Source: Halomicronema hongdechloris C2206 | GTDB lineage: Bacteria > Cyanobacteriota > Cyanobacteriia > Phormidesmidales > Phormidesmidaceae | Length of the DNA: 32,000 bases | Direction of reading: 5' to 3' | Assembly (NCBI RefSeq): GCF_002075285.3 | Contig: NZ_CP021983.2 | Coordinates: forward strand, 3,120,001 to 3,152,000 | In this document: in pieces, positions 6,544-13,085 of the stretch | Layout: each line of letters starts with the position of its first letter | Numbering within the stretch: the first letter of the stretch is position 1 | Position numbers and translations under genes: made by a program | Notes under the pieces: generated by a model | What the model saw: only the letters and a program-made list of their open reading frames with translations | The model's database searches: none | What the model was told of the DNA's origin: nothing

Positions 6544-6954
6544 TTATGCTCCGTAGTCAGGAGATTCACTCAGTTTATCGAGGTAGGTGATGGCCGCCTT
6601 TGCCAAAACGGTCTCTTCTAGATAATGCTTGGCGACTTCTCCAACAGTGGCTTTGAGCGCCTGGGCATGACGTTCGGGATTGAGGAGTTGCTGGCGCAGC
6701 GTTGTGAGGCGATGATGGGGCGACTGTTGGATGTCGGTGAACTCAGCATCGATGATGGCCAGGGCTTCAGTTTCGGTGGTGACGCTGGGATGCCGAGCCT
6801 GAAGCTGGGTGAGTAGCGCTTGCAGGTCAGCGATCGCCTGTTTAACCTTTGGGTCACTCGGATGGTTATTTTGAGTCTCGATGTAGGTTTCAACTTGCTC
6901 AAAAATTTGCACTTTTTCGGCTTTGGGAAAATGGTATTTCGAACTCTCAGTCAT
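6544..6954 (-). CDS. hypothetical all-helical 136-aa protein, last gene of the NACHT-ParDE string
   Basis: Intact ORF. Its ATG (6952-6954) overlaps the TGA (6951-6953) of the frame-corrected ParE reading frame (ATGA overlap). Gln/Leu/Glu-rich, no TM segment, no motif recognised. Confidence 0.6.
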   Translation of the reverse strand: MTESSKYHFPKAEKVQIFEQVETYIETQNNHPSDPKVKQAIADLQALLTQLQARHPSVTTETEALAIIDAEFTDIQQSPHHRLTTLRQQLLNPERHAQALKATVGEVAKHYLEETVLAKAAITYLDKLSESPDYGA

Positions 6955-7272
6955 GGCTCCGGCTCCTGTTCCAAAATGAATTCCAGATTTTGAGCCCCGT
7001 GGAGGACTCGAATAATCTCAACGGCTTCGGGGTGTATTTGATAGAATGATATGTTTGTTGAAGCCTTTGATGGGATATTGACGCACTTGAGCGAGTTTTG
7101 GCGTTGTGAAACCGCTCAATTTTCCAATTGCAGGTAACTCGGCAATGCGTTGGAAAGTAGCCTCGGCGGCATAGATAAAGCGATCTCCCGCATCAAGATT
7201 ATCTCGACTGATGTATGTAGCATGGTCAATTAGATCTTGAATAACAACGGGGCGTTTGATTAGATTAGCCAT
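6951..7272 (-). pseudogene. parE: ParE/RelE-family toxin, interrupted by a frameshift near 7044-7050
   Basis: ORF 7018..7272 encodes a ParE-like N-terminal part (...VRQYPIKGFNKHII) and then stops after LSNTPRSR. The adjacent frame continues from 7046 as FYQIHPEAVEIIRVLHGAQNLEFILEQEPEP*, the canonical ParE C-terminus (IFY...I.RVLHG). A 1-nt insertion or 2-nt deletion in AAACATATCATTCTATCAA would explain it. Confidence 0.75.
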
Positions 7273-7522
7273 GCTGAGATTGATCGCTCTGATTCTTGCG
7301 TACGTTCGAGCGAATGGTTTCCCAGTCGGCAGCGGTCATCGGGGTTGCCTCGCCCGATTCTAGTCCTTCAAGGAGAAGCGGTTCGAGATGTTCCTGGCGG
7401 GCTTTATCTTGCTGAATTAGAGCCTGGATGTAGGCATCTGCCGTACTGAATTCACCAGAGTCGATGCGAGCTTGCAGGTAAGCAGTTAGGGCTTCAGGAA
7501 GGGAGACAGTGAAAGTTGTCAT
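7265..7522 (-). CDS. parD: ParD-family (RHH/CopG-like) antitoxin
   Basis: 85 aa. MTTFTVSLPEALTAYLQARIDSGEFSTADAYIQALIQQD is typical of the ParD antitoxin family. Its stop overlaps the parE start by 8 nt (ATGGCTAA-type overlap). Confidence 0.8.
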   Translation of the reverse strand: MTTFTVSLPEALTAYLQARIDSGEFSTADAYIQALIQQDKARQEHLEPLLLEGLESGEATPMTAADWETIRSNVRKNQSDQSQHG

Positions 7523-7549
7523 GGTTTTCTCAGGGGAAGGACGGCGATT

Positions 7550-10500
7550 TTATCGGCTATGGATTGGGGTCTGGGGGATGCTCATAGTAGCGATCAACCC
7601 GCCCGAAGTTTTGGCCTCTGTAGCATTGGGGAAAACATATGTCGTTTGGCCAGGAGCTATCTGACCTTCATTTTGAATTTCTAATTTTGCAGTTTGAATT
7701 GCCTCCTGCCAGATTTCGTAGTTGTAGAACTTGCAGCGGTTTTGGATAGCGGCGATAGTAGAAATAAGACTAATGTTATCCATTCGCTGACAGATTCGCC
7801 AAAGCTCGGCAATAGCTATAGGAAACCCGACTTTCTTAAGGGCATCACAACATTTTCTGTATCTATCTGTATGCTCATATATCCCAGCATAGGGATTTCT
7901 TCTCATTTTTAAGCCTTGCCTTAGTTCATCCAATAGTGCTTCAGTAGCCCTTTTGATGTCTGATCTGCTATCTAATTTGATACTTAAATCTCCTAAAACT
8001 TCAGTGGCTTTAATACGACGATACGGATCTATTTCTTTTGCAAGAATATATCTAAGTTTTAAAAGTGCTTTTTCGCAATCTAAGTTATCTAACGCCTGGA
8101 TGGAATCTCTATACAGGGAAGTGTTTTTATTTTTCCTGCTATCTTTGACTGCTTTAACCAAAGCAGGAATTATCTTATCGTTTTTTACCTGACTTGTGAG
8201 TTTGACAAGTGCATTGGCAGCCATCTCTCGCAAAGACCAGTCTCGCTCTTTCAGTGTTATAAGCAGCTCTGAAAAAGCCTCTTCACAACCTAGATTACCT
8301 AATCCGAAAGCGGCAAATTTACGAACATCTGGGTATTGGCTTTTTATCGCTCTCTGTAGCAATGGAATAGCTCCCTCACTGTTAAATTTATCCAAAGTGT
8401 ATGTAACACAAGCTTGAACTTTAATTTCTTGACGTTCTAAAGCATCTAAAAATATTGTTTTAAGGATGGGGATAGCATGCACAGGATCTAACTTGCTCAA
8501 TGAGCTAATAACTAAACAAGCTCTATGCTTGTCTGTTATTCTTAACCCTGACTCGATTGATTTTTTAAGCTCTTGGACAGCATTATTAGTACCTAGTCGA
8601 GCCAGAGAATTAGCTGCGGCTTTTACGACTTCATCTTGCGAATCATTTAATGCCTGACTTAAAGCTGAAATAGATTCCCCAGAATCCAGGTATCCCAGGG
8701 CCAAAACTGCGCGAATTCTAACAATAGCATCTTCATGCTTGCTAAGGTGGATCAAGCCAGAAATAGTTTTTTCACTCCTCAAGTAGTGGACCAAAACTAT
8801 TGCGGACTTCAATCCTGGATCGGATTTCAATTTTTCCAATGAATAAAAAATTTCCTTAGACGAATCTAAAGAAACTTTAGTGAATCCAAACTCAGATTCT
8901 TCAAGATTGGAATCGGAATGGATAGATTCTTTAACGTCTCGAAATAATTCTGGAATTATTTCTTTGCAACCCAAACTTGCCAATTCAAACAATATACTAC
9001 GTCGCTTTTTAGCATAATTCCATCCATAACTATCTGGATCAGCATTAGTGATGAATTCACTTAAAACTGGGATTGCCTCCTGTTTATCAAAAATCGCTAA
9101 TATTTGAGCTGCATTAAAACGAGCAGAAAAATTCTGGCTTTTAAGTAAATTCAAGAATTTTGAAACATGATTCTCTATGTCCAACGGTCTTATTAAATTT
9201 GATATGCTAGCGTTGGTTCCCCATATCAAATCCAAATCATCGAGTCCATCAAATATATCTTTATCATAATCTTCCAAGAAATCAATTAGACTCGGAACCC
9301 CTATTTCGGCATTGAGCATTAACAAGGCAGTTGCCGCCTCTCGGCGAGTATGAATTTCATGTTTTCTTTGTGATAACTTCAGAAGATGAGGAATAGCTAG
9401 TGAGCTACCCAGTTTTCCTAATGAGATAGTGCTATACTTAGCCAGTATCTTAATAGCTTCCTCCGATGAGGTGTTTGCTAGTGCTCGGATAATATTTCGC
9501 TCCAACCTTTGTTTCGAGAGATTTTCCTCTATTGGAGTATTTCTGTTCCGGCATTTTTTTCGAAGGATAGGTAACTTCTCTAACCATGATTGGTTAATAA
9601 AATGATCGTCTCCCTCTTCAAGAATCTTCTTCAATGCAGGAATCGCCGATGCTGAGCGAGCTTTATCCAAAAGTTTTACTTTGAGCTGTAAAGGATTCTC
9701 TTTACATCCGGTGATTAGCTGAACAGTTTGCTCTTGAAAACTTGGTTTCACCTCTCCCGCCAATTTCGCTCCCAGCATCAAATCCACATCATCGATCGCC
9801 AGTTTCACAACCCGCAGCGCCTGTTCCTCCTCATTCACCAGGGCCAGCATCAGGGCCACGGGTTCGGTCCACTTCAACAGATTGAGGTAGTCTCGCTTCA
9901 GTCGATCGTCGCTTAGCTCTGGCAGCAGCCGCAGCAACTGTTCCGCGGCGTAATATTCCTGAATCAGTTGGTGGCGAAACTCGATGTGTTCTTCAAGGGT
10001 GGGCTGTTTCACCGGCTGCAGCAGGTGATAGTCCAGCAGGTCTTGCAGCCAGCGTTCGGCACAGGCTCGGGCATTGGCTCTACCCTCTTGCTGCAAGCAG
10101 TCCGCCAACACCGCCTCCGCCTCTTCCCGAGGCATGGACAGGCGAAACTCAACCGGGTCTTGGTCATGCATCAGGGCAAAGGCCAGATGGCGCAGTAGTT
10201 TGGGCCACTGCTTTCTGGAATCAACCGGGGCATCTTCCTGAATCGCCTGATGCTCCTCAGTTCCTTGGTCATACAGCTGAGTAAACTCGCGAAACGCCAA
10301 CCCCAAATTGGCGGGCACCTCGCCGTTCTGGGCAAACACCCGACAGAGCATCCACAGTAGCAGGGGCGTTTCGGCAAACTTCCGCAGCCGGTCTCCTTGC
10401 AGTTGCTGAAACAGGCGATCGCCTTCCTCACGTAAATAGCCCCGCACAAACGCCTGCATTTGCGGTGCCGTCAGGGGCAACATCTTCAGGGTTTTGGTGA

Positions 10501-11419
10501 TGCCCAGGGTGCCGCCCACGCTTAGGTCGCGGGTGGAGACAATCATCGGGGTGGTGGCGCGGTTGCGATCGCGAAAATTGGTCACCTCTGTTCGGTAGTC
10601 TTCTGGGAGTTCGTTCAAGCCATCCAGCAACAGCAGCAGCCTGCCCTGCCGTAACAAGCGCTCAATCTCGGCAATCTCCAGCGGCAGCTCATGACCACTG
10701 AAATAGTCTTGAATCAGATGCTCAAGGGTGGAAGTACAGCGGCGCAGCTTCACCAGCACCGGGATTTTTGCAGCAGGATTCTGCAATGCGTTGCTGGCCT
10801 CTTCCCACAGCAGCCGTTCCAGCGATGTCGATTTCCCCGAACCCGGTTTGCCAATCAGCAGCACATGCTCCGCCGCATAGTTGCGTAGTCCCGCCAGCAC
10901 ATCCCACTGTTCAACCTGTTCCCTGTTCTCTATTCTCTCTACATCTCTGCCTTCTCGATCTTCCTGGGGCTTAACGGTCTCTACCCGATCTCTGCCTTCT
11001 CGATCTTCCTGGGGCTTAACGGTCTCTACCCGCAGCTTTAGGAGCGGTGAAAACTTGGGTCGTGGCACTTGCTTGCGGCCTGCAACCGTCGTACGAGTGT
11101 AGACCTCTTGCCGCTCGCGATAGTCTTCGTGATTACGGATAGACTGCAAATAGGGCTCAAAATCAATATGATCTGAACGCTGGATCGCCTTCGGCGCAAA
11201 CCGCTGCTCCAGCAGATCAGTCAATGGGTCTAAGCCGCAGCCGGTGGAGCCGGTGGCCCAATTGAGCAGATCCGCCACGCGGTTGCCCTGGGGGGCCGAT
11301 GGCCCACTAATGATGCCAGGGGGCAGGTTCAGCGCCACCAGGAACTCCTCGAACTGGGGCTGGGGTAGGGCGGATAATTGTCGAAACAGATGCGATCGCA
11401 GCTCAGAATCACCTGACAT
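7550..11419 (-). CDS. STAND NTPase: N-terminal helical adaptor-like domain, NACHT P-loop NTPase, C-terminal HEAT/ARM repeat array (1289 aa)
   Basis: Walker A LLIGKPGSGKST (codons at 10826-10852), Walker B LLLLLDGLNE, then MIVSTRD (sensor-1-like). The N-terminal 75 aa read LFRQLSALPQPQFEEFLVALNLPPGIISGPSAPQGNRVADLLNWATGS. From about aa 565 there are many HEAT-like units (AIPALKKILEEGD, VRIRAVLALGYLDSGESISALSQALND, VRKFAAFGLGNLGCEEAFSELL and others). Single uninterrupted ORF. Confidence 0.9.
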   Translation of the reverse strand: MSGDSELRSHLFRQLSALPQPQFEEFLVALNLPPGIISGPSAPQGNRVADLLNWATGSTGCGLDPLTDLLEQRFAPKAIQRSDHIDFEPYLQSIRNHEDYRERQEVYTRTTVAGRKQVPRPKFSPLLKLRVETVKPQEDREGRDRVETVKPQEDREGRDVERIENREQVEQWDVLAGLRNYAAEHVLLIGKPGSGKSTSLERLLWEEASNALQNPAAKIPVLVKLRRCTSTLEHLIQDYFSGHELPLEIAEIERLLRQGRLLLLLDGLNELPEDYRTEVTNFRDRNRATTPMIVSTRDLSVGGTLGITKTLKMLPLTAPQMQAFVRGYLREEGDRLFQQLQGDRLRKFAETPLLLWMLCRVFAQNGEVPANLGLAFREFTQLYDQGTEEHQAIQEDAPVDSRKQWPKLLRHLAFALMHDQDPVEFRLSMPREEAEAVLADCLQQEGRANARACAERWLQDLLDYHLLQPVKQPTLEEHIEFRHQLIQEYYAAEQLLRLLPELSDDRLKRDYLNLLKWTEPVALMLALVNEEEQALRVVKLAIDDVDLMLGAKLAGEVKPSFQEQTVQLITGCKENPLQLKVKLLDKARSASAIPALKKILEEGDDHFINQSWLEKLPILRKKCRNRNTPIEENLSKQRLERNIIRALANTSSEEAIKILAKYSTISLGKLGSSLAIPHLLKLSQRKHEIHTRREAATALLMLNAEIGVPSLIDFLEDYDKDIFDGLDDLDLIWGTNASISNLIRPLDIENHVSKFLNLLKSQNFSARFNAAQILAIFDKQEAIPVLSEFITNADPDSYGWNYAKKRRSILFELASLGCKEIIPELFRDVKESIHSDSNLEESEFGFTKVSLDSSKEIFYSLEKLKSDPGLKSAIVLVHYLRSEKTISGLIHLSKHEDAIVRIRAVLALGYLDSGESISALSQALNDSQDEVVKAAANSLARLGTNNAVQELKKSIESGLRITDKHRACLVISSLSKLDPVHAIPILKTIFLDALERQEIKVQACVTYTLDKFNSEGAIPLLQRAIKSQYPDVRKFAAFGLGNLGCEEAFSELLITLKERDWSLREMAANALVKLTSQVKNDKIIPALVKAVKDSRKNKNTSLYRDSIQALDNLDCEKALLKLRYILAKEIDPYRRIKATEVLGDLSIKLDSRSDIKRATEALLDELRQGLKMRRNPYAGIYEHTDRYRKCCDALKKVGFPIAIAELWRICQRMDNISLISTIAAIQNRCKFYNYEIWQEAIQTAKLEIQNEGQIAPGQTTYVFPNATEAKTSGGLIATMSIPQTPIHSR
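10943..11032 (-). repeat. perfect 45-bp tandem duplication inside the NACHT gene linker
   Basis: ATCTCTGCCTTCTCGATCTTCCTGGGGCTTAACGGTCTCTACCCG occurs at 10943-10987 and again at 10988-11032. It encodes the doubled 15-aa unit seen as VETVKPQEDREGRDRVETVKPQEDREGRD, between the N-terminal domain and the NACHT core. Confidence 0.95.
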
Positions 11420-11891: not shown

Positions 11892-13085
11892 TCAGGGCTC
11901 TCCTGCCTGGGTCAGCCGCATCCACATCGGCATCTGGGTGTTTGCCCCAGCCTCGATCCGCTCTAAGGCTGTCATCATCTCGACCTTGACATCAAATTTA
12001 GATTCCTGCTCAAGCGCCCGACGGAGCGATTCAACTGCCGAGTGATCGCCAATTTCGTTTAAGAACCGGGCAGCGCGCCAGCGTACTAGCTCAGAGGGAT
12101 CGCTCAGGGCTGCAATCATGGTGGCCATGGCGCTAGGACTAGGATCGCCAATATCGCTCAGGGCATCACCTGCAGTCCGGCGGACGATGGGTGAGGGATC
12201 TTGCCGGGCGAGACGACAGAGGGGGGCAACCGCAGTCGTCAGGGCACTGGCCCCGAGTAGCGCTGCGGCCCAACGCCGGATTGTGCTTTTGTCATCATCG
12301 AGTACGGCCACCACTGCCGATACAGTCTCGGCAGTCACGTCTAGCTGCTGCAGTGCCTTAAGTCGACGTTTCCAGTCGGGGTGGTTTAACTCAGCGATGA
12401 GGGCTTGCTGTTGGTCCGTTTTGTCAGCAGGGGGGGCATCGGAACGATCTTCAACCGCCACGGCTTCAAGCTGGGTCAGTGCTTGGGAGTCAAGCAAACT
12501 ATCGATTTCATCGGCCACCATCTGGGCCACAAGGTGGGGGTCCCCCGCTGGCGCTTGATAAGGCTCCCAGCGTCGCTCTATCACATAGTCAGCCCCAGTC
12601 GCACTAATGGTTCGCTGTAGCGCCTGAGCGAAACGGTCGGGTAGGGCAACGCGGGCCTGCTGCCCGTCAGCTGCGATCGCACGTACTTGCACTGGAATGC
12701 CCCGAAATACCTGAACGGCTACATCGAGTTGGCCCAAATTTGAGCTAGACGAGGGCGCACTCGAATTATCCTCAGTGGGATGCAGCGGCTGGGATAGCTG
12801 CGTGAGCAGCTTCGAATCAGCATGGTCTGCTACACCAATTAAAGCCGCCGCCTTGGCGAGAATCGGTTGCCAATCTGATCTGCCTTGGCGAGTGAGGGTA
12901 ACGAAATCTTTGACCACGAAGACAGACTGAATCGCCTCAATTGCCAGCAGTTGCTGAACCCATTCAGGGGTATTGGGCGAGGGGTTACCTTTCTGGAAGG
13001 TCAGTGCTTTGTCGCTAATGGTCTCATCTAGATTGAGCTTGATGCAGTTAGGGCTAGGGGTGGTTTCGATAGAAAGCAATCGCAT
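11892..13085 (-). CDS. CvfC/YpgR-like protein: Nfu/NifU N-terminal-like domain plus PBS-lyase HEAT-like repeats
   Basis: The N-terminus MRLLSIETTPSPNCIKLNLDE...FVTLTR resembles the Nfu_N scaffold-like domain. The C-terminal third has HEAT-like units (IRRWAAALLGA, VRRTAGDALSDIGDPS, VRWRAARFLNEIGDHSAVESL). Confidence 0.7.
   Translation of the reverse strand: MRLLSIETTPSPNCIKLNLDETISDKALTFQKGNPSPNTPEWVQQLLAIEAIQSVFVVKDFVTLTRQGRSDWQPILAKAAALIGVADHADSKLLTQLSQPLHPTEDNSSAPSSSSNLGQLDVAVQVFRGIPVQVRAIAADGQQARVALPDRFAQALQRTISATGADYVIERRWEPYQAPAGDPHLVAQMVADEIDSLLDSQALTQLEAVAVEDRSDAPPADKTDQQQALIAELNHPDWKRRLKALQQLDVTAETVSAVVAVLDDDKSTIRRWAAALLGASALTTAVAPLCRLARQDPSPIVRRTAGDALSDIGDPSPSAMATMIAALSDPSELVRWRAARFLNEIGDHSAVESLRRALEQESKFDVKVEMMTALERIEAGANTQMPMWMRLTQAGEP

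Follow-up and report, generated by a model that had tools for sequence, protein, structure and literature searches.

The 1289-aa NLR-like receptor gene of Halomicronema hongdechloris C2206 (WP_088430210.1 / ASC72026.1; positions 7550..11419, minus strand, of the 32-kb stretch of DNA analysed here, the window) is split in composition, and its low-GC part coincides exactly with the HEAT sensor (codons 558-1220). On balance, we favour the view that the whole ligand-sensing HEAT module of an NLR-like NACHT receptor makes up this AT-rich stretch, and that it was swapped in as a block from a cassette pool of the family. Sensors of the family form a compositional class of their own, with a GC3 of ~0.30 that is independent of the host genome, and the composition of the NACHT half follows the host in part.

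Module organization and the composition step

The receptor consists of an N-terminal module, a NACHT NTPase, a helical linker, the HEAT sensor and a conserved tail, and its gene is surrounded by housekeeping neighbours; no transposase, integrase or silent copy of the cassette was found within the 32-kb window, and an Rfam search gave no match. The N-terminal module (aa 1-84; 11168..11419, minus strand) has host-like GC3, matches no Pfam family, EAD models included, and is shared with protein P0004; EAD10 or Trypsin_2 takes its place in close relatives. The linker preceding NACHT contains a perfect 45-nt tandem duplication (RVETVKPQEDREGRD twice; 10943..11032, minus strand), the unit being present as a single copy in relatives. 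The NACHT domain (aa 186-331; 10427..10864, minus strand) scores 40.5 bits against PF05729 (cutoff 26.7), and Walker A (GKPGSGKST) and Walker B (LLLLLDGLNE) motifs were read in the translation. With a NACHT score above the curated threshold, both Walker motifs and a C-terminal repeat sensor, the protein is predicted from its sequence to be a NACHT-type STAND NTPase (NLR-like). None of the PADLOC bNACHT or Avs models matched it; the only hits of that search were HEAT-ARM_XIII and, weakly, HEAT_CxxC_PDDEXK and mad8.

The 5' edge of the AT-rich cassette is formed by a conserved junction motif, AIDDVDLMLGAKLAGEV (aa 541-557; 9749..9799, minus strand), which is a recurrent break point among relatives. 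A role of this junction as a nucleotide-level anchor or G-rich hot spot was rejected (synonymous conservation 0.54 vs 0.56 in other conserved columns, P=0.6), as was a 31-nt "echo" of it inside the cassette, which is not significant at the protein level (167/500 shuffles reach its score). The sensor module itself (aa 558-1220; 7760..9748, minus strand; G+C 0.37, GC3 0.31) is all-helical by prediction and has no internal DNA repeats in H. hongdechloris. Canonical PBS/alphaRep-type HEAT repeats occupy aa 872-1145 (7985..8806, minus strand), where AlphaRep matches span the whole segment (E 6e-30); HEAT_2 reaches 125 bits on the receptor over five stretches. These repeats are the only sensor part with a confident structure model, the predictions for the sensor and for the companion protein described below being of low confidence (pLDDT 45.8 and 55.2).

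The sharp G+C drop that the initial annotation had described within this single ORF is real: GC3 is 0.66 before and 0.32 after a change point at codon 557 ± 5 (LLR 73.3; 2-lnL support interval, codons 549-559, positions 9742-9772), and the top LLR was 9.6 in 300 permutations and 7.6 in 23 other ORFs of the window. The accompanying flip in synonymous codons was also borne out by the counts. From the N-half to the sensor, CTG drops from 54 to 9 and TTA rises from 4 to 27 (Leu), GCC+GCG drops from 37 to 14 and GCT rises from 1 to 26 (Ala), and GTG goes from 19 to 1 (Val). The step is not an amino-acid effect, since four-fold degenerate sites change as well, from a G+C of 0.77 in the N-half to 0.27 in the sensor; GC1 falls too, from 0.69 to 0.46. 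Third positions are host-like in the N-half (C3.25, G3.41), and those of the sensor (A.34, C.14, G.17, T.35) carry no sign of amelioration. The codon-adaptation and sliding-window checks proposed in the initial annotation gave a concordant picture: with the other ORFs of the window as the reference set, a CAI-like index was 0.705 for the N-half, 0.493 for the sensor and 0.61-0.79 for those ORFs, and 7572-9838 is the sole long run of 300-nt windows below 0.44 G+C. GC3 lies between 0.49 and 0.76 in 26 of 26 other ORFs. HEAT repeats are not AT-rich per se, because an adjacent HEAT protein has a GC3 of 0.61 across its HEAT part. HIP1 octamers do occur at 10415, 10565 and 11392 and not in the cassette, as had been pointed out, but their absence there carries no weight because only 1.26 sites are expected in 2.2 kb (P(0)=0.29).

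Exchange of sensor blocks at the conserved junction in relatives

Separate searches with the two halves pointed in different directions, as the initial annotation had anticipated. The NACHT half has 483 homologues, the best of them 64-80% identical. Among 1.84 billion representative proteins, the sensor found a 100% match to itself only; the next matches were 29-40% identical over generic HEAT repeats, and no relative above ~40% identity was detected. Plasmids yielded three weak matches only (~28% identity) and phages none, and a metagenome scan recovered eight loci only. These comparisons support discordant histories for the sensor and the NACHT half.

Replacement of blocks at the junction can be followed in relatives. 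Loci L022 and L023 show 0 mismatches over 1488 nt and then 109 in the 550 nt just past the junction, their N-halves being identical and their sensors ~20% different. The syntenic pair L010/L011 is 90% identical in nucleotide sequence, with homology that ends at the junction and resumes inside the downstream companion gene and with sensors that cannot be aligned. For L005 and L025, dS is 2.9 in the NACHT core and 0.23-0.33 in the sensor, and the flanks are 90% identical, which corresponds to a retained sensor and a replaced NACHT half; the sensor dS equals that of the flanks, so stable inheritance of sensors is possible. More broadly, many protein pairs combine 92-100% identity in the N-half with only 31-66% in the sensor. 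Alignments of these three pairs show cassette exchange at conserved anchors, and for the H. hongdechloris lineage itself we infer a sensor swap. Given the distinct sensor class and the block exchange in relatives, the history of the H. hongdechloris sensor is most likely separate from that of its NACHT half.

We propose that modules are exchanged as in-frame blocks through recombination, with a 5' break point at the conserved junction (...VDLMLGA[KR]LAGEV) and a 3' break point in or past the conserved tail. L010/L011 are the one syntenic pair in which the 3' break point can be located: it falls inside the companion gene, and the tail motif on the receptor side, a toxin-antitoxin pair and the motif on the companion side travel in the block along with the sensor. 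In H. hongdechloris, the sensor would likewise have been installed by block replacement from the cassette pool, a scenario in which a low-GC donor species is unnecessary; every sampled cassette is unique, so the pool itself is not demonstrable. As for AT-richness, our preferred reason is that DNA exchanged only as whole blocks and too diverged to pair internally may escape the force that keeps host GC3 high, and would then rest at an AT-biased mutational equilibrium. Intergenic DNA of the window has 0.49 G+C, not 0.3, and a plain decay of neutral sites to AT would therefore have to be supplemented by another force, for which GC-biased gene conversion is one candidate. The strength of GC-biased gene conversion in bacteria is disputed.

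Sensor composition across hosts and the alternative explanations

An AT-rich sensor is present in the window locus (WIN) and in L001-L005, L010, L011, L014, L017, L020 and L022-L029, including the three nearest relatives of the NACHT half. Across 14 independent relatives, sensor GC3 is 0.299 ± 0.027 (0.24-0.35), with host GC3 ranging from 0.38 to 0.75; sensor GC3 does not track that of the host (r=0.06, slope 0.013), and the slope for the N-half is 0.29. GC3 change points fall at the junction and at the C.FYNY motif. The third-position make-up of the sensors is near-identical between hosts, with A3 ~ T3 and G3 ~ C3. Exceptions are L006, L007, L009 and L015/16, whose host-like sensors lie outside what the favoured model explains.

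Such host independence also bears on the possibility that no swap took place in this lineage, i.e. that sensor and NACHT half were never separated and that the sensor became AT-rich where it stands, under some local regime. Candidates for such a regime are relief from codon selection or from GC-biased gene conversion, and a mutation spectrum that differs locally. Bare mutation pressure predicts host-independent GC3 and strand-symmetric third positions; several sensors have a GC3 lower than predicted from GC1 and GC2, and the AT-rich sensor of L005/L025 is stably inherited in GC-rich hosts. However, relatives directly show block replacement at the junction, L006 and L009 have host-like sensors, and regular repeat arrays, open to internal conversion, are AT-rich too. 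There is also no known mechanism for a 0.35 GC3 step within ~10 codons, and we regard in-place origin as a credible but minority explanation.

Alternatively, the sensor could have been imported in frame once and recently, from a low-GC organism (for instance, a Nostocales cyanobacterium), and not yet have ameliorated. Such an origin fits the sharp boundary, the GC1/GC2/GC3 of the cassette (0.46/0.36/0.31, as in a ~38% G+C genome at equilibrium), the GC3 of the adjoining parE (0.36) and the fact that most family members reside in low-GC Nostocales and Pseudanabaena. This explanation, already weakened, appears unlikely to us: the same composition recurs in at least 14 independent relatives regardless of host, nearest N-half relatives included, and no cassette relative above 40% identity exists among the 1.84e9 representatives, plasmids or phages searched. 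Moreover, the sensor remains below the host's own GC3 by 0.11-0.15 even in low-GC Nostoc (0.24 vs 0.31-0.44) and Pseudanabaena (0.27 vs 0.38). By the criteria for horizontal acquisition, the composition of the sensor is atypical for its host, but it is not one that is typical of a donor and atypical only in high-GC hosts. AT-richness in nearly all relatives regardless of host points to a trait of the exchangeable cassette rather than to one low-GC import. The initial proposal that the sensor was swapped in by recombination from a low-GC donor is therefore partly supported: its first part agrees with the discordant halves and the in-frame replacement in relatives, and its second finds no support, since the 14 relatives have AT-rich sensors whatever their host GC3 and no donor-like relative was found.

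Targeted hypermutation of the sensor by a diversity-generating retroelement (DGR), a deaminase or a process like fungal RIP would account for the differences between L022 and L023, which are more than 100-fold more frequent in the sensor than in the N-half. There is precedent, in that RIP-like C-to-T mutations and a GC below that of other genes are seen in fungal NLRs whose repeats are internally conserved (PMC13449251), and DGRs target sensors in multicellular bacteria (PMC10907252). Nevertheless, such a process is highly improbable here: the 32-kb window contains no reverse transcriptase or template repeat, L022 and L023 differ by every substitution class with a transition/transversion ratio of 1.3, a RIP/deaminase signature is absent from the sensors ((CpA+TpG)/(ApC+GpT) 1.49, the same as in N-halves), and sensor dS equals flank dS in L005/L025. 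DGR variable regions are also far smaller than a 2-kb target. Finally, an assembly chimera or other artefact can be dismissed, since, the probable indel described below aside, the 3.9-kb frame is unbroken, both ends of the cassette are those of the family (the conserved first sensor segment at its start, the tail at its end), and the same pattern recurs in more than 15 independent assemblies.

Tail, toxin-antitoxin pair and companion gene

The sensor is followed by a conserved tail motif, TIAAIQNRCKFYNYEIWQEA (codons 1221-1240; 7700..7759, minus strand), a GC3-rich island whose C-ending codons are kept family-wide and which shares 36 identical nt with Almyronema L002. The motif occurs only once in the window, and it was not found in the viral contigs scanned. 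The C-terminal tail that follows (motif Y.FPNATEAK / NFGRVDRYYEHPPDPNP; 7550..7642, minus strand) matches the N-terminus of the companion protein. It is broken by a -1 frameshift at an A4 run (7609-7612), the stop in the family frame being a TAG at 7557-7559; the frameshift is probably a homopolymer indel, implying that the assembly has small errors. These features revise the outline given in the initial annotation, which had set the cassette at 7650-9720 and returned the last ~30 codons to host composition. The cassette proper spans 7760-9748, and GC3 beyond it is 15/20 in codons 1221-1240, 7/30 in codons 1241-1270 and 13/19 in the last 19 codons, so the 3' end does not simply become host-like again. 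Those last 19 codons are read out of the family frame.

Immediately downstream lie ORFs for a ParD-family antitoxin (85 aa, GC3 0.50; 7265..7522, minus strand; TIGR02606 47.0 bits, cutoff 46.2) and a ParE-family toxin (84 aa, GC3 0.36; 7018..7272, minus strand; PF05016 25.4 bits, cutoff 23), which overlap by 8 nt and qualify as a type II toxin-antitoxin parDE pair. The ParD ORF is 71% identical to an ORF downstream of the L001 receptor, and toxin-antitoxin pairs from five families fill the same gap in relatives. Next comes the companion gene (136 aa, predicted all-helical; 6544..6954, minus strand), whose homologues follow the receptor gene in nine other loci. That these are separate downstream genes ruled out the ORF as the leftover of a displaced gene end. 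The companion protein has no family match, Bell and HeLo included, and in P0119 its domain and the receptor are fused into one protein. The first ~25 aa of the companion (6865-6954) match the C-terminal tail of the receptor, and this correspondence is kept within individual loci, four motif types being represented: the within-locus motif scores sum to 464, a value reached by 3 of 5040 permutations, and the WIN pair scores 54 vs 20.4 ± 4.3 for shuffles.

By analogy, the HEAT solenoid would bind a ligand and thereby trigger NACHT oligomerization, and the clustered receptor C-terminal tails would then engage the matching companion N-terminal motif. A bolder version, which we put forward as a rather doubtful extension, treats the exchange unit as a "specificity cassette" made up of the sensor, the tail motif, the TA pair and the companion motif. 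The TA pair could then serve as an addiction module favouring the persistence of a newly gained cassette, the matched terminal motifs could let the oligomerized receptor activate the companion in an inverted amyloid-type signalling, and the constant, strand-symmetric GC3 of ~0.30 would represent the bare mutational equilibrium of cyanobacterial DNA, exposed because exchange only as blocks would free the cassette from GC-biased gene conversion or selection. The arrangement resembles BASS/Bell and HET-S/NWD2 amyloid pairs, in which one end of a receptor and one end of an adjacent small helical protein likewise have a ~25-aa motif in common. Published pairs carry the motif N-terminally on the receptor and C-terminally on the effector, whereas here it occupies the receptor C-terminus and the companion N-terminus, a toxin-antitoxin pair separates the two genes, and amyloid formation is putative. 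This layout with matched terminal motifs was not found in the amyloid-signalling literature examined; if true, it suggests a logic of signalling and cassette maintenance.

Fungal and bacterial repeat-sensor NLRs (HET-E/NWD WD40, TPR, ANK), whose hypervariable repeats are reshuffled, likewise place a fast-diversifying repeat sensor behind a STAND NTPase. Bacterial WD and TPR NLRs have internally conserved repeats that vary at fixed positions (bioRxiv 10.1101/2020.01.06.895854), and similarly the 93-nt HEAT units of L022, L023 and L024 share 81-87% identity among themselves, their differences falling at fixed positions. In contrast to those NLRs, the repeats here are HEAT repeats and the H. hongdechloris sensor lacks internal DNA repeats; in contrast to fungal NLRs, only the sensor is GC-poor, independently of the host and without a RIP signature. 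A limited literature search found no report of a compositional split of this kind in bacteria. Cassette-type variable segments such as hsdS target-recognition domains, O-antigen clusters and flagellin central regions are AT-richer than their genomes. They share with the sensor a hypervariable recombining block, with G+C under that of the host, between conserved sequences; the block described here differs in lying inside an NLR-like receptor gene and in its constant composition over hosts of 0.38-0.75 GC3. If true, a GC3 step at a conserved junction would be a simple signature of sensor modules and exchange boundaries in bacterial NLR-like receptors. Synonymous composition that is independent of the host across this range would offer a natural probe of what sets bacterial G+C, and the two halves of one transcript would allow mutation bias, selection and GC-biased gene conversion to be contrasted.

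Avs and bNACHT defence proteins likewise combine a NACHT NTPase with a C-terminal repeat sensor, and a defence role is putative here; among relatives of the receptor, TIR or trypsin-like effector modules are present. In multicellular prokaryotes, EAD-coupled conflict systems pair a constant core with swappable terminal adaptor/effector modules (Kaur et al. 2020, PMC7159879). Although the 84 N-terminal residues of the receptor match no Pfam EAD model, unlike those systems, its close relatives with an N-terminal EAD10 resemble them, and L027 sits among EAD10 proteins.

Composition step inside the receptor gene

The NLR-like receptor gene (7550-11419, minus strand) encodes a 1289-aa protein (WP_088430210.1 / ASC72026.1 of Halomicronema hongdechloris C2206), a singleton at 90% identity clustering, with Pfam matches to NACHT (aa 186-331) and, in five stretches, to HEAT_2; its PDB matches (aa 872-1145) are designed alphaRep HEAT-like proteins. 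At codon 557, third-codon-position G+C (GC3) steps from 0.66 to 0.32 (support interval 549-559, LLR 73.3; maximum 9.6 in 300 permutations and 7.6 in 23 other ORFs). Four-fold-site G+C falls from 0.77 in the N-half (aa 1-557, comprising the N-terminal module, NACHT and linker) to 0.27 in the sensor, the HEAT module encoded by an AT-rich cassette at 7760-9748, and the CAI-like index is 0.493 in the sensor versus 0.705 in the N-half and 0.61-0.79 in other ORFs. The window overall has 55.0% G+C and 17 HIP1 octamers; none of its other ORFs has a GC3 below 0.49, and no second long stretch with G+C below 0.44 was seen in it. The sharp change noticed in the initial annotation is thus real and highly significant, and the synonymous codon flips claimed between the NACHT part and the cassette were borne out by codon counts. 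The lack of HIP1 sites in the cassette, also put forward as evidence, carries no weight because merely 1.26 sites are expected.

AT-richness is not inherent to HEAT repeats, since the HEAT part of a neighbouring Nfu-HEAT protein has a GC3 of 0.61. The gene for this neighbour (11892-13085, minus strand; Nfu_N, Virulence_fact and HEAT_2 domains) is host-like in composition. Within the receptor gene, a perfect tandem duplication of 45-nt units (10943-11032) encodes RVETVKPQEDREGRD twice, present once in the relative proteins P0004 and P0001; this either arose very recently or reflects an artefact of assembly.

Block exchange and sensor composition in relatives

As proposed, separate searches with the two parts returned different relatives. 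The N-half gave 483 matches, the best (64-80% identity) from Leptolyngbya- and Nodosilinea-like cyanobacteria, whereas the sensor (aa 558-1289) gave six weak matches in a word-indexed search. When 1.84 billion representatives were searched exhaustively with phmmer, only the sensor itself was recovered, the next matches (29-40% identity) being confined to a generic HEAT stretch; no relatives were found among phages, and among plasmids there were three weak matches (about 28% identity). Aligned with P0004 and P0001, the receptor shows high identity to about aa 560-598, then a collapse, and identity resumes solely at the tail motif IQ..C[KQ]FYNYEIWQ. The closest N-half relative, P0022 (locus L027, 1-4508), is N-terminally cut, adjoins a transposase and is flanked by three EAD10-containing genes, one with an nSTAND1 NTPase.

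Exchange is seen directly among relatives, where sensors are 31-66% identical in protein pairs whose N-halves are 92-100% identical. Loci L022 and L023 have no mismatch in 1488 nt of upstream region and entire N-half but 109 mismatches in 550 nt on the sensor side, beginning a few codons past the junction, a conserved motif at the 5' cassette boundary (9749-9799, aa 541-557, in the window). The syntenic loci L010 and L011 (90% nucleotide identity) lose homology at the junction and regain it 1.4-1.8 kb on, within a downstream companion gene, right behind its N-terminal motif. Between L005 (Kaiparowitsia) and L025 (Nodosilinea nodulosa), the flanks (89.7% nucleotide identity), sensor (dS 0.23-0.33) and TIR tail (dS 0.25) are close but the NACHT cores are not (dS 2.9, 48% amino acid identity), so here the NACHT module is the replaced part. 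L001 (Nodosilinea) and L005 share 84% identity in the N-half and 39% in the sensor, so L001, L005 and L025 are incongruent in a three-way comparison. Exchange also extends to the N-terminal module, which is of the window type, EAD10 or Trypsin_2, and some relatives carry a TIR domain C-terminal of the C.FYNY motif. The flanks common to L005 (9368-13774) and L025 (8001-10619, 15337-16788) include a TrwC relaxase, and in N. nodulosa an interruption of about 4.7 kb with transposases splits the gene, leaving a separate HEAT-CQFYNY-TIR ORF.

The AT-rich sensor composition is a property of the family. A three-part GC3 profile, with an intermediate or host-like N-half, a sensor at 0.24-0.37 and a GC-rich tail, recurs in genomes and metagenomes: L001, L002 (Almyronema), L003, L004 (Alkalinema), L005, L010 (Phormidesmis) and its sister L011, L014, L017, L020, L022, L023, L024 (Pseudanabaena), L025, L026 (Nostoc), and the three closest relatives of the window N-half, L027/P0022, L028/P0001 and L029/P0004. 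The change points coincide with the junction and C.FYNY motifs. In 14 independent genes whose host GC3 was estimated, the sensor has a GC3 of 0.299 ± 0.027 over host values of 0.38-0.75 (r = 0.06, slope 0.013), and N-half GC3 tracks that of the host in part (slope 0.29). The sensor lies below the host value in Nostoc and Pseudanabaena as well. Sensor third positions are near-identical across hosts and strand-symmetric (A.33-.39, T.33-.42, G.12-.21, C.07-.20). L006, L007, L009 and L015/16 are exceptions with host-like sensors.

The NACHT halves are G3-rich (0.29-0.46) and C3-poor (0.11-0.25) in all hosts, low-GC Nostoc and Pseudanabaena included (e.g. L004, L024, L026), with T-ending codons at conserved Phe, Tyr, Asp and His. 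In pooled AT-class sensors the odds ratio of CpG is 0.70 and that of GpC 1.34; for CpG, their N-halves have 0.83, low-GC host genes 0.97 and host-like sensors 1.01. A distant member (31% identity; L013, 2802-6203) is AT-rich throughout (GC3 about 0.3) and has one flanking ORF with a GC3 of 0.65.

Origin and extent of the window cassette

In the window, GC3 and third-position make-up of the N-half are host-like, and the sensor has the standard composition of its class without sign of amelioration; either the sensor is the later arrival of the two halves, or sensors escape whatever lifts host GC3. The sensor swap put forward in the initial annotation is supported at the family level by exchange at the same junction. 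Because relatives show replacement at this exact junction, we favour a sensor installed by block replacement out of a family cassette pool, which on balance is the probable course in the window gene. Neither mobile-element genes nor silent cassette copies were found in the window. That a local regime alone made the sensor AT-rich, with no swap at all, is conceivable but less likely; such a regime may also explain the AT-richness of the entire pool. The low-GC donor species originally suggested is an improbable source, unsupported and unneeded given that the same AT-rich class occurs in 14 genes irrespective of host GC3. Hypermutation of the sensor is unlikely, as the window contains neither a reverse transcriptase nor a template repeat, a RIP signature (fungal repeat-induced point mutation) is absent, substitutions are of mixed types, and in L005/L025 the sensor and its flanks have the same dS.

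Fungal NLRs are known to have hypervariable repeat sensors that are internally conserved and undergo repeat reshuffling, and the same has been proposed of bacterial NLRs (bioRxiv 10.1101/2020.01.06.895854); lower GC and RIP-like mutations are reported in fungal NLRs (PMC13449251), and adaptor-coupled modular conflict systems in multicellular prokaryotes (PMC7159879). A limited literature search found no earlier account of AT-rich sensors as a host-independent class, of an inverted matched-motif pair or of the toxin-antitoxin position described below.

Type II toxin-antitoxin pairs of five different families, depending on locus, occupy the gap between receptor and companion: ParDE in the window, UPF0175 with DUF3368 in L006 and L007 (UPF0175 alone in L029), RelE with antitoxin in L003, L011 and L014, PIN with DUF2281 in L001 and L020, and HicA/HicB-like in L010. 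The window ParD (7265-7522, minus strand; GC3 0.50), directly 3' of the receptor and 71% identical to an ORF 3' of the L001 receptor, and ParE (7018-7272, minus strand; GC3 0.36) both lie below host GC3. The block exchanged between L010 and L011 spans the sensor, the tail motif of the receptor, their differing toxin-antitoxin pairs and the companion motif. G+C below 0.44 in the window extends over ParE and the first ~40 companion codons, which would fit an exchanged unit reaching from about 6850 to 9748.

Receptor tail and companion gene

The 3' boundary of the window cassette is a compositional mosaic; the host-like return claimed for the last ~30 codons is not a simple one, and the conserved tail motif TIAAIQNRCKFYNYEIWQEA (7700-7759) forms a GC3-rich island. 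Across nine genes, 37 of the motif's 45 Phe, Tyr, Asn and Cys codons (82%) have C in third position, compared with 27% for sensors and 34% for N-halves (Fisher P 1e-10 to 1e-13). Synonymous sites of C[KQ]FYNY are conserved in the window, L002, L003, L005, L006, L014, L020 and L029, with 36 identical nucleotides between the window and Almyronema. Speculatively, the motif could be a homologous-recombination anchor or be under codon-level constraint. Past FPNATEAK, the annotated frame, TSGGLIATMSIPQTPIHSR (last 19 aa), lacks homology, whereas the -1 frame, NFGRVDRYYEHPPDPNP (stop 7557-7559), matches family tails and the companion motif. The -1 frameshift maps to the A4 run at 7609-7612, where it reflects either a genuine, inactivating change or a sequencing error in the homopolymer.

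The companion ORF (6544-6954, minus strand) encodes a predicted helical protein of 136 aa. Homologues with 59-76% identity are separate genes 3' of the receptor in L029 (11078-11497), L006 (14851-15273), L014 (5702-6127), L003 (6535-6954) and L020; weaker ones occur in L004, L007 and the sister loci L010 (13284-13643) and L011 (12890-13282), and in protein P0119 the domain is joined to the receptor. Within each locus, the first ~25 aa of the companion match the last ~25 aa of the receptor, and four types of motif occur; just 3 of 5040 permutations reached the within-locus score sum, and the window pair scores 54 versus 20.4 ± 4.3 for shuffles. The matched motifs make these pairs resemble amyloid-signalling receptor/effector pairs, but the topology is inverted, with the motif at the receptor C-terminus and the companion N-terminus. 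In Leptolyngbya PCC 6406 (L006, 13372-14860) there are two genes resembling the companion, the first of them (129 aa, MSNAPKFDLRGANIGNLAETVQGDQI...) matching the receptor tail TYDLRGATIANLAHEVHGNQI and the second carrying a motif of the L029 type.
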